This document shows, one piece after another, positions 13,557-15,039 of a stretch of 64,000 nucleotides of DNA. The notes under the pieces are model-generated. The model did no database searches. It saw nothing but the letters and a program-made list of their open reading frames with translations, and was not told the DNA's origin. This stretch comes from an uncultured bacterium (GTDB lineage: Bacteria; Patescibacteriota; Andersenbacteria; UBA10190; CAIZMI01). Location of the stretch: contig CAIZMI010000021.1 in assembly GCA_903934015.1 (NCBI GenBank), forward strand, positions 10,868-74,867. Direction: 5' to 3'. Every line of letters begins with the position of its first letter. The stretch's first letter is position 1. The translations under genes were made by a program, and so were the position numbers.

Positions 13557-13958
13557 TCACCATTTAATGTCCAAGTCGAGGAAACCGATTGTCACTCTTC
13601 CATGTCTACCGGGGTAGACGTTGATGTTCGGGCGATCGTAGAACGGTGGGACGTAATGGTTGTGGGGTTGGTAATTCCAGTTTGGTTGCTGGGGAATGTA
13701 GGGGAAGCGTGGCGGCGTGACGTAGTTGTACCGTGGTGGCGCGACGTGCGGGCGTTGGTAGCGGGGCTGTGGCGCGCGTCGTACTTCATTGTGCCGGTTT
13801 CCGTAGTCGCCGGTGTAATAGGAATACATCGGATCGCCGGGTCGGGTGGGGATGTAGACCCCGTTCCGTCGTTCGGCTCCGTCGGCCTTTTGGTCGCACA
13901 ATTCCGATATCATCCAGCCAGCGATCATGCAAAATACAAACAAACATACTCTTTTCAT
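13557..13958 (-). CDS. secreted Tyr/Pro-rich protein with a PGDPMYSYY motif
   Basis: It has a signal peptide. The PGDPMYSYYTGDYGN motif and the Y/P/N-rich composition are shared with 14242..15039. Confidence 0.5.
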   Translation of the reverse strand: MKRVCLFVFCMIAGWMISELCDQKADGAERRNGVYIPTRPGDPMYSYYTGDYGNRHNEVRRAPQPRYQRPHVAPPRYNYVTPPRFPYIPQQPNWNYQPHNHYVPPFYDRPNINVYPGRHGRVTIGFLDLDIKW

Positions 13959-14129
13959 GTCTCTTCTCCTTGTGAGAGTGGAAAACGAACAATCTAGACT
14001 AAAACGAACGCTTTCAACCTACTCTTGAATCAAAAAATTGGGAATAGTCAACGTATCACTTCGCAGGTGGAGCAAGGTTGCTCCTCCTGCGAAGTGTACG
14101 CAGGCAACGAAGGGTTATTGGTGGCGATT

Positions 14130-14220
14130 TGTCATTCCTGGTCGTGACCAGGAATCAACGACAACCAGATTATGACCGTAAAACGACGCGGGCTCCTGCT
14201 CACGGGCAGGAGCGACACGG
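14130..14220 (+). repeat. repeat family B: two-hairpin element (gtcattcctggtcgtgaccaggaatca ... gggctcctgctcacgggcaggagcgacacgg)
   Basis: It has two perfect stems and is the same composite as 41548..41620 and 43094..43200. Confidence 0.7.
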
Positions 14221-14241
14221 ATCATCTGCGAGGCGATTTTT

Positions 14242-15039
14242 CTACCAAAATCGCAAGTACGACAGGCCGTAATTTACCCAGCCTAAAACATTGCTCGCGG
14301 TGTTGCGATAATATCTATAATAAGTCGGTCGGTAATAGGTGGAATAACTTCGGTATGTATACGGACTTTTATAGGCCACCGCTTTGGGTGTGCCATTGTA
14401 AAAACTGTAGAAATTATCTCCTGGTTTACGGGGAACATATGACACGGGCAGTTGATTATTGATATTCAAGACAGGCGCTTTGTATGTTTTGGGATCGTAG
14501 TATTCGCCATAATTATTGTTTGTAACGGAATATAATGGATCACCGGGTTTTTTTGGTTTGTATTCTGCCGGCGTGTCGCCATTGATGCTTTTTAGTAACG
14601 GTGATTGATATGTGTTTGCGTCATAGTATTCACCGTACTGATTATTGTTATAGGAATATAAAACATTGCCAGGATCTTCCGGCTTGTAAACAGTTTGAGG
14701 TTTATCGTTATTGACGTCTTTTACCGTTAATTTAAATGTCTCGGCATTATAGTATTCGCCATAGTTGTCATTGTTGTAGGAATAAAGCGGATCGCCGGGT
14801 TTTTCGGGAGTGTAAGCTGGAGCAGTTTCTTGGTTAATGTTTTTTTGAGTATTTACTTCGGCGTATTTTTGTGGGTCGTAATAGCTTCCATAATCATTTT
14901 TGTAATATGAATACATCGGATCTCCCGGCTTTACGGGCACATAGTCGTTTGATATGGCATTTGTTTTGTTAGGAAAAAGGCTGAACGCAAGAAGTGCGGA
15001 AACAATAAAATATGTCTTTGAGTAATTACAGTTTTTCAT
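14242..15039 (-). CDS. secreted tyrosine-rich repeat protein (five or six repeats of about 38 aa: KPGDP(M/L)YSY.N..YGEYYD..TYK)
   Basis: It has a signal peptide (ALLAFSLFPNKTNA) and visible internal periodicity. The gene is AT-rich, unlike its GC-rich surroundings. Confidence 0.65.
   Translation of the reverse strand: MKNCNYSKTYFIVSALLAFSLFPNKTNAISNDYVPVKPGDPMYSYYKNDYGSYYDPQKYAEVNTQKNINQETAPAYTPEKPGDPLYSYNNDNYGEYYNAETFKLTVKDVNNDKPQTVYKPEDPGNVLYSYNNNQYGEYYDANTYQSPLLKSINGDTPAEYKPKKPGDPLYSVTNNNYGEYYDPKTYKAPVLNINNQLPVSYVPRKPGDNFYSFYNGTPKAVAYKSPYTYRSYSTYYRPTYYRYYRNTASNVLGWVNYGLSYLRFW

Follow-up and report, generated by a model that had tools for sequence, protein, structure and literature searches.

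Two adjacent genes for tyrosine-rich repeat proteins

The window analyzed here is a 64,000-nucleotide (nt) stretch of contig CAIZMI010000021.1 from an uncultured bacterium. It carries two adjacent genes on the minus strand, designated A and B, whose products look exported and share a tyrosine-rich unit that protein A repeats in tandem. Both open reading frames (ORFs) lie where the initial annotation had placed them. The coordinates of the two genes are taken from the ORF list and include the stop codon; related loci and proteins are denoted by L and P numbers, respectively.

14242..15039, minus: gene A, encoding a putatively exported 265-amino-acid (aa) repeat protein rich in Tyr, Asn, and Pro
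14956..15039, minus: signal peptide of A (aa 1 to 28), MKNCNYSKTYFIVSALLAFSLFPNKTNA, with predicted cleavage after TNA, read from the sequence
14815..14943, minus: A unit 1 (aa 33 to 75), YVPVKPGDPMYSYYKNDYGSYYDPQKY..., from the unit alignment and a hidden Markov model (HMM) domain score of 66 bits
14698..14814, minus: A unit 2 (aa 76 to 114), from the unit alignment and HMM (68 bits); P0001 lacks precisely this unit, in register
14563..14697, minus: A unit 3 (aa 115 to 159), from the unit alignment and HMM (72 bits); the best conserved unit among the orthologs
14440..14562, minus: A unit 4 (aa 160 to 200), from the unit alignment and HMM (68 bits); both P0001 and P0002 lack it, in register
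14305..14439, minus: degenerate A unit 5, YVPRKPGDNFYSFYNGTPK, and Tyr/Arg-rich tail (aa 201 to 245), a partial HMM domain of 19 bits with a B-like layout
14245..14304, minus: conserved C-terminal segment of A (aa 246 to 265), NTASNVLGWVNYGLSYLRFW, a candidate amphipathic helix
13557..13958, minus: gene B, encoding a putatively exported, basic, Pro/Arg/Tyr-rich protein of 133 aa with one unit
13734..13862, minus: B unit (aa 33 to 75), NGVYIPTRPGDPMYSYYTGDYGN..., from the HMM (67.5 bits) and the unit alignment

Judged by eye from the hydrophobic N-terminal segments, A appears to begin with a signal peptide, as had been annotated, and so does B. The orthologs of A have AVA/AAA cleavage-type sites at the position matching the end of the signal peptide of A.

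The shared unit has the core Y-x-P-x-x-P-G-D-P-(L/M)-Y-S-Y-x4-Y-G, which in A-type units is followed by x-Y-Y-x3-T-(Y/F) and then by a linker ending in (I/V/A)-N-(N/G)-x-x-P. Over 12 A- and B-type units, the positions Y3, P5, G9, Y13, S14, Y20, and G21 are invariant. The P(G/E)D(P/N) anchors in A fall at residues 38, 81, 120, 165, and 206, and the unit HMM recognizes four full units and one partial unit, with a repeat period of 39 to 45 aa (mean, ~42 aa). Tandem repetition, which the initial annotation had described for A, is thus clear, whereas its estimates of a ~38-aa period and of five or six units give way to ~42 aa and to four full units plus a degenerate fifth. The fifth unit keeps the first ~18 positions and then runs on into the Tyr/Arg-rich tail. 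Protein B carries a single unit, YIPTRPGDPMYSYYTGDYGN, found as one HMM domain in agreement with the annotation, and ends in a Pro/Arg/Tyr/Asn tail with a C-terminal Trp.

The best self-alignment of mature A scored 211, compared with 49.8 ± 8.0 in 200 shuffles (z = 20), so the repetition is not an artifact of composition. A and B align with a score of 105 versus 41.9 ± 7.3 in shuffles (z = 8.6) and match each other in BLASTP with an E value of 1e-8, which bears out their description as paralogs with a common motif. DNA identity between the units is merely 60 to 77%, and Tandem Repeats Finder reported no array. These two observations indicate that the duplications are old and that the motif is held by selection on the protein, and a recent origin of the repeats by slippage was rejected on the same grounds.

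Mature A contains 17.7% Tyr, 12% Asn, and 10% Pro, with 17% Ile, Leu, Val, Met, and Ala together and a grand average of hydropathy (GRAVY) of -1.15. Mature B has a pI of 9.6 and contains 16% Pro, 11.5% Arg, and 11.5% Tyr. Across the mature proteins, GRAVY is about -1.2 and the five residues named above make up 15 to 17%. Over the whole proteins, the Tyr content is 16.5% in A versus 9.7% in B.

The last 20 residues of A follow the pattern NTA..V.GW..YGLS..., which is kept in all A-type proteins, with N246, T247, A248, V251, W254, Y257, G258, L259, and S260 invariant. The helical hydrophobic moment of this segment is 0.9 to 1.3, and a high hydrophobic moment is a trait of in-plane membrane anchors. 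The segment is a candidate membrane or assembly anchor. The motif was not found outside A-type proteins among the six-frame ORFs of the sequences compared, and a C-terminal sorting tag was rejected because the motif is not common to other proteins. NCBIfam gave no match in A to sortase or exosortase signals (LPXTG, PEP-CTERM, GlyGly-CTERM, and similar), and the C terminus, an amphipathic stretch of 20 aa that lacks a basic tail, is not of the sortase or exosortase type.

In most B-type proteins, a Cys is kept at the end of the signal peptide. With the lipobox [LVI][ASTVI][GAS]C closing the signal peptide as the lipoprotein criterion, the region reads LQSC in P0004, LQGC in P0005, LGYC in P0011, and ISELC in the window.

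Selection and expression signals

A and B are real genes under purifying selection, as indicated by their substitution patterns, their stability within the species, and their expression signals. The ratio of nonsynonymous to synonymous substitution rates (dN/dS) is 0.09 between A of the window and its L010 ortholog and 0.08 to 0.27 for B-type pairs, with synonymous sites saturated in all pairs. The reading frames are intact across five to eight diverged genomes. Five assemblies of the species, from different samples, carry the 2.6-kb locus without a single base difference, the sole exception being a deletion in L006. A protein identical to A was called on 13 contigs from several metagenomes, and one identical to B occurs on 17 contigs, one of which is an NCBI record. 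The deletion in L006 (position ~2130, equivalent to window position ~13915) removes 1 nt within the signal-peptide codons of B and leads to a 129-aa variant call; either strain variation or a fault of assembly could account for it.

The following elements precede the two genes.

15049..15076, minus: promoter of A, with TTGACA, 16 nt, and TATGAT, ending 9 nt before the ATG (11 of 12 consensus matches)
15082..15100, minus: terminator-like hairpin and T-run, insulating A from the upstream small ORF
13959..14053, minus: conserved noncoding block of ~95 nt, directly upstream of B

The -35 box TTGACAA of A is invariant in five orthologous loci whose flanks have otherwise diverged, and the -10 box lies 9 to 19 nt from the ATG. 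No Shine-Dalgarno sequence was found before the ATG of A, which, together with the short distance of the promoter, suggests that the mRNA of A is leaderless or has a very short leader. B has the ribosome-binding site (RBS) AAGGAG 8 nt upstream of its ATG. The ~95-nt block is nearly identical in the window, L010, and L012, whereas the B proteins are merely 60 to 64% identical and their synonymous sites are saturated. As an RNA element, the block yielded no consensus structure and no covariation, and Rfam gives only a tRNA. Since no RNA structure is supported, the block is probably a promoter or operator plus the RBS.

The lack of annotated homologs and of a predicted fold, as well as the 1-nt deletion in the signal-peptide region of B in L006, could be taken to mean that A and B are nonfunctional, either chance ORFs or decaying relics in low-complexity DNA. 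The selection analysis, with dN/dS values of 0.08 to 0.27 over several genome pairs, effectively refutes this explanation. Frames that are intact in five to eight diverged genomes, the conservation of the promoter of A and of the RBS and upstream block of B, and the invariance of specific residues in units whose DNA is 60 to 77% identical leave it with hardly any probability at all. Among the ways in which it might fail, the initial annotation had named loss of the periodicity on proper alignment and ORFs that are frameshifted relics. The repeats remain periodic when properly aligned, and with dN/dS values of 0.08 to 0.27 the genes are not decaying, nor are they frameshifted.

Distribution and evolution of the family

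The unit is known from about a dozen sequences worldwide. Among 5.8 billion proteins, the search with A found two proteins and that with B found two beyond B itself, and the B-family profile gave no further members. The unit profile had eight hits among 1.84 billion representative proteins, six of them true members and two due to chance. P0008, a eukaryote-like repeat protein matching the YG-YY part alone, and P0010, a 1914-aa beta-repeat protein with only 'GDPLYSVYNNSN' in common, were rejected as members. A scan of a 185,579-species genome collection gave no relative of the A family, a metagenome scan contributed one locus (L013), and no family member was found in 50,697 phage records (tblastn) or in two scans of viral contigs.

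The initial annotation did not recognize the motif as a named family. In line with this, searches of Pfam, NCBIfam, and PADLOC gave nothing relevant, and PDB sequences matched the unit or A only at E values of >1. PHROGs gave one weak match, to phrog_8272 (tail protein; E = 8.7e-4), with no stretch passing alone, and the identification as a phage tail protein was rejected in view of the null tblastn and viral-contig scans. An anti-phage defense role was likewise rejected, PADLOC being null for A, B, and five neighbors. In the literature, the motif strings were not found in a relevant context, and Saccharibacteria and 'tyrosine-rich' were not found together. The repeat and the family are previously undescribed, while exported tandem-repeat low-complexity surface proteins are familiar as a kind.

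The analysis places the organism in the Saccharibacteria; its nearest match in the GTDB species collection is a metagenome-assembled genome of an uncultured Candidatus Saccharibacteria bacterium, with 83% identity over the ClpC N-terminal region. As judged from the sequences recovered, the A/B family is confined to one subclade of Saccharibacteria (TM7, within the candidate phyla radiation [CPR]). Orthologs of A are present in L010, L013, L001 to L004, and L015, and those of B are P0004, P0005, P0011, and one protein in L013. All of the members with enough flanking DNA sit at one locus, downstream of clpC and a conserved gene for a 304- to 336-aa protein and ahead of genes for a Pro-rich protein with a membrane anchor, an SPFH/Band-7 protein, and a membrane protein of ~270 to 296 aa. 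The gene content of the locus varies as follows.

A and B pair: the window, L010, L013, and L015
B only: L012
A only, with three units: L001
B-type genes only, with one or two variant units: L014 and L016, from more distant genomes

The orthologs of A differ by whole units lost in register, with P0001 lacking units 2 and 4 and P0002 lacking unit 4. Invariant columns cluster at residues 106 to 158, and unit 3 is nearly invariant. The tail of A is basic (Tyr/Arg) in the window, L010, and L015 and acidic (Tyr/Asp) in L013, P0001, and P0002. Unit 5 and the tail of A resemble the layout of B, as seen in YNGTPKAV... of A versus YHGTPRGTV... of the L013 B protein. We conclude from these comparisons that the single-unit B-type form, which is more widespread, is ancestral and that A arose by N-terminal amplification of the unit. 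The A-type form would then consist of units amplified in tandem before a B-like unit plus tail, with whole units still being gained and lost in register.

Genomic context

In L001 (2242-4184), an insertion with genes for prephenate dehydrogenase and dehydratase separates the 304-aa gene from A, and a gene for a 132-aa membrane protein takes the place of B, which marks the locus as a variable region. The loci of relatives encode further exported low-complexity proteins rich in Gly, Pro, His, and Tyr. An uncalled 75-aa ORF in the window (15130-15357, minus) is preceded by a GGAGG RBS, begins with a segment resembling a signal peptide (MKKVMTIVLLIISVSC), and is followed by a terminator hairpin. 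In relatives, this position is taken by larger exported Gly/Pro-rich proteins with a C-terminal CxxCG motif (L010, 611-1105; L004, 196-723; L013, 231-1130).

The conserved 304-aa gene (16711-17625, minus) has no family hit and always lies between clpC and the A/B locus; the C-terminal part of its product weakly resembles GT-B glycosyltransferases (TIGR02472, E = 0.078). Next to it, positions 17778-20492 encode an AAA+ chaperone that is ClpC/ClpG-like and carries a McsA-like zinc-finger segment at its N terminus (CxxC...CxxC; NF053706, residues 5 to 39), and this fusion of the McsA-like segment with ClpC is kept in all of the related loci.

The A/B locus lies 0.2 to 4 kb from an array of seven VirB2-like type IV secretion system (T4SS) pilin genes (PF18895/PF04956). 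The array occupies positions 6301-10400, just upstream of the GC-rich block described below, and is interrupted by a DUF559 gene. A VirB2-like pilin array has been described for Saccharibacteria (doi 10.1101/2025.01.22.634366). The window also holds a chemotaxis cluster at 29467-38460 that is complete (dCache methyl-accepting chemotaxis protein, CheW, FliM-like protein, response regulators, CheB, CheA, and CheC/CheX) in a reduced CPR genome and that presumably controls pilus-based motility. A type I restriction-modification system (HsdM, HsdS, and HsdR) at 45157-52068 has a BRO-N domain gene between the S and R genes. Elsewhere in the window, in addition to the chemotaxis operon and the type I restriction-modification genes, lie genes for gyrA, polynucleotide phosphorylase, and S15.

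Base composition

The G+C content is 0.39 in A (0.41 at third codon positions [GC3]), 0.55 in B (GC3, 0.66), and 0.43 in the window. The contrast in base composition noted in the initial annotation is therefore present, but it is not special to the A/B pair, since B belongs to a GC3-rich block of four genes.

10632..13958: GC3-rich four-gene block, encoding a 296-aa membrane protein, an SPFH/Band-7 protein (Band_7 hit), a 142-aa membrane-anchored Pro/Ala-rich protein, and B

Predicted from the amino acids at the background codon usage of the window, the G+C contents would be 0.384 for A and 0.471 for B. Amino acid composition (Asn/Tyr/Lys versus Pro/Arg/Gly) thus accounts for about half of the gap between the two genes, and synonymous choice accounts for the other half. 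The four-gene block has a GC3 of 0.60 to 0.72 versus a background of ~0.40, strongly prefers NAC over NAT codons, and is poor in T at fourfold sites. Neither the NAC preference nor the scarcity of T at fourfold sites occurs in housekeeping genes, pilins, or A. The small ORFs flanking A (15130-15357 and 16298-16684) are likewise GC3-rich, which makes A a gene of ordinary composition in a GC3-rich neighborhood. The contrast belongs to the neighborhood: the GC3-rich codon usage of B is an old trait that it has in common with the three envelope genes next to it, and A has the usage ordinary for the genome.

The same contrast recurs in L010, L012, L013, L015, and the more distant L014. Since synonymous sites are saturated between these relatives, the contrast has persisted for a long time, which argues against recent horizontal acquisition. 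If B and its GC-rich neighbors were a recently acquired foreign island and A were native, the paralogs would be xenologs. The GC3 excess of the block over the background, its location close to a tRNA-Leu gene, and the existence of high-GC Saccharibacteria with B-type genes (L016, 59% GC) are compatible with this explanation of the composition. However, the block, its position, and its GC3 excess are all shared with relatives whose synonymous sites are saturated and also with L014 (ClpC 83% identical), which makes the pattern an old one that has not ameliorated. From genome to genome, B has diverged more than housekeeping proteins have, not less (60 to 64% versus 96% identity for ClpC), and no viral, plasmid-like, or integrase signature was seen at the locus. 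A foreign island is accordingly improbable. For models of how base composition evolves, a GC3-rich block that has lasted so long in a reduced, AT-leaning genome poses a small puzzle.

Predicted structure and possible function

AlphaFold2 (AF2) gave a mean predicted local distance difference test score (pLDDT) of 34.6 for full-length A (3-sequence alignment) and 36.3 for a three-unit construct (unit-enriched alignment of 16 rows). Only the signal-peptide helix (residues 6 to 21) and a C-terminal helix (residues 247 to 260; pLDDT, ~50) were modeled in A, and no secondary structure was predicted within the units from these shallow alignments of 3 to 16 sequences. The collagen-like or beta-solenoid fold suggested for checking in the initial annotation fits neither the sequence, which has no G-X-Y periodicity, nor the AF2 models, which have no strands.

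Our overall reading, which we offer tentatively and with somewhat less than even confidence, is that A and B are extended Tyr-rich envelope or surface proteins that make multivalent Tyr-mediated contacts and have a matrix or adhesion role. It starts from the reality of the genes, their repeat architecture, distribution, synteny, selection, and composition as described above, and from export signals called by eye. Both proteins would leave the cell through the Sec pathway. The mature proteins, being hydrophilic and poor in aliphatic residues, with no globular fold predicted, would be extended components of the cell envelope or surface. The conserved amphipathic C-terminal segment may hold A at the surface, and B may be held by its N-terminal Cys or by a C-terminal strand-like segment. 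Multivalent tyrosine contacts could then form between A and B themselves or with glycans or cell-wall polymers of the bacterium or a host.

Several points weigh against this reading. The signal peptides of both proteins were called by eye. The putative lipobox of B in the window (ISELC) is noncanonical. A is absent from L012 and B is absent from L001, so neither is indispensable. Among those window ORFs that were scanned with Pfam, no tyrosinase, laccase, or peroxidase appeared, and no sortase or dedicated secretion gene was seen. Nothing at the locus therefore points to cross-linking or to a covalent anchor. That A and B have complementary charges is not a conserved trait, and a charge-complementary A/B coacervate was rejected because A is acidic in L013, P0001, and P0002 but, in the window and L010, close to neutral and provided with a basic tail. 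The low pLDDT, obtained on alignments of 3 to 16 sequences, is no proof of disorder, and the conservation of a whole unit (unit 3) could mean that there is a folded or assembling structure invisible to AF2.

Such a structure might be a small folded glycan- or peptidoglycan-binding module of ~42 aa, comparable to LysM or to choline-binding or 'YG' repeats, in which case A would be a multivalent binder of its own or the host wall. The unit is close in length to LysM (~44 aa), K-P-G-D-P-L-Y-S resembles the LysM start V-K-x-G-D-T-L-x-x-I, and the best, nonsignificant PDB match is the LysM protein 4uz2 ('APGDTLYSI'; E = 1.4). Like LysM (PF01476), the unit has (K)PGDP(L/M)YS in the place of (K)xGDTLxxI, with YG a few residues later, and occurs in tandem copies in exported proteins. 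Carbohydrate-binding repeats typically occur as tandem copies in which aromatic, Gly, and Asp positions are conserved, as they are here, and the whole-unit conservation of unit 3 suggests more than a short linear motif. However, Pfam found no LysM or CW_binding domain in A at E values of ≤1 or in 12 single units at E values of ≤10, and hhalign of the unit against a LysM profile built for the comparison gave a probability of 26% over 11 columns. LysM homology, for which 4uz2 was the lead, was rejected on the hhalign result and the Pfam search of single units. Neither the beta-alpha-alpha-beta arrangement of LysM nor any other secondary structure was predicted in the units from the shallow alignments, the spacing from YG to the conserved Asn is unlike that of LysM, and CW_binding_1 (PF01473) repeats are ~20 aa long compared with 39 to 45 aa for the units of A, which have no Pfam hit. 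We regard a folded binding module as rather unlikely.

In another explanation, A, and perhaps B, would be a functional amyloid or self-assembling fiber subunit whose repeats stack as strand-turn-strand layers, as in CsgA and FapC. These are small Sec-exported proteins built from some five imperfect repeats in which Asn, Gly, and aromatic residues are abundant, and A likewise appears to be exported and has five repeats that are imperfect. Its Tyr and Asn contents are very high, and it has segments of the YSYNNNQYGEYY type, which resemble known steric-zipper peptides, and Pro and Gly are conserved at the unit borders. AF2 also fails on A, and such failure is probably common for amyloid subunits with shallow alignments. 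The unit of A is nevertheless twice as long as the curli or Fap repeat, Pro makes up 10%, and the units contain many charged residues. Neither Curlin_rep (PF07012) nor any other amyloid family was hit in Pfam or NCBIfam, and AF2 gave no beta structure at all. The neighboring genes encode SPFH and membrane proteins, ClpC, and pilins, with no dedicated secretion or nucleator genes of the Csg or Fap type nearby. Saccharibacteria are not known to have an outer membrane. An amyloid is, on balance, an improbable identity for A.

The reading as extended Tyr-rich surface proteins has parallels among Tyr-rich extracellular structural and adhesive proteins, such as mussel foot protein Mfp-1 (with AKPSYPPTYK repeats), resilin, and sandcastle-worm cement. 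Like these, A appears to be exported, has tandem repeats with plenty of Tyr, Pro, Lys, Thr, and Asn but few aliphatic residues, and has no predicted globular fold. As in adhesives based on 3,4-dihydroxyphenylalanine or dityrosine, Tyr-rich repeats occur in a putatively exported protein (17.7% Tyr in mature A, five repeats). Unlike these proteins, with which it shares no homology, A has a unit of 42 aa rather than 10 to 15 aa, is of CPR bacterial rather than animal origin, and has no oxidase partner among the scanned genes.

With the known surface systems of Saccharibacteria (type IV pili, the VirB2-like pilin array, and VCBS/dockerin/FN3 proteins), A and B share the phylum and the presumed compartment. 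They have no domain in common with those systems, and position alone connects them with the pilin array. The adhesins identified in cultivated Saccharibacteria have recognizable domains (VCBS, dockerin, and FN3), and VCBS-, dockerin-, and FN3-domain proteins are essential in Candidatus Southlakia epibionticum (PMC10633639). A T4SS survey did not detect PrgB-type adhesins in CPR (doi 10.1101/2025.01.22.634366). A more specific and distinctly doubtful idea is that the unit is a Tyr-based attachment module for the host cell wall or for an epibiont-host matrix, with the copy number (1 to 5) and the tail charge tuning it to host surfaces.

A and B are a lineage-restricted, selected, and apparently exported pair at a conserved yet variable locus beside a VirB2-like pilin array, and they may bear on the attachment of ultrasmall CPR epibionts to other bacteria. 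If they are not components of the surface or of adhesion, they would be one more case of the orphan low-complexity envelope proteins that are many in CPR genomes. If they are such components, they would represent a new and very compact type of attachment protein as well as a marker of the subclade.

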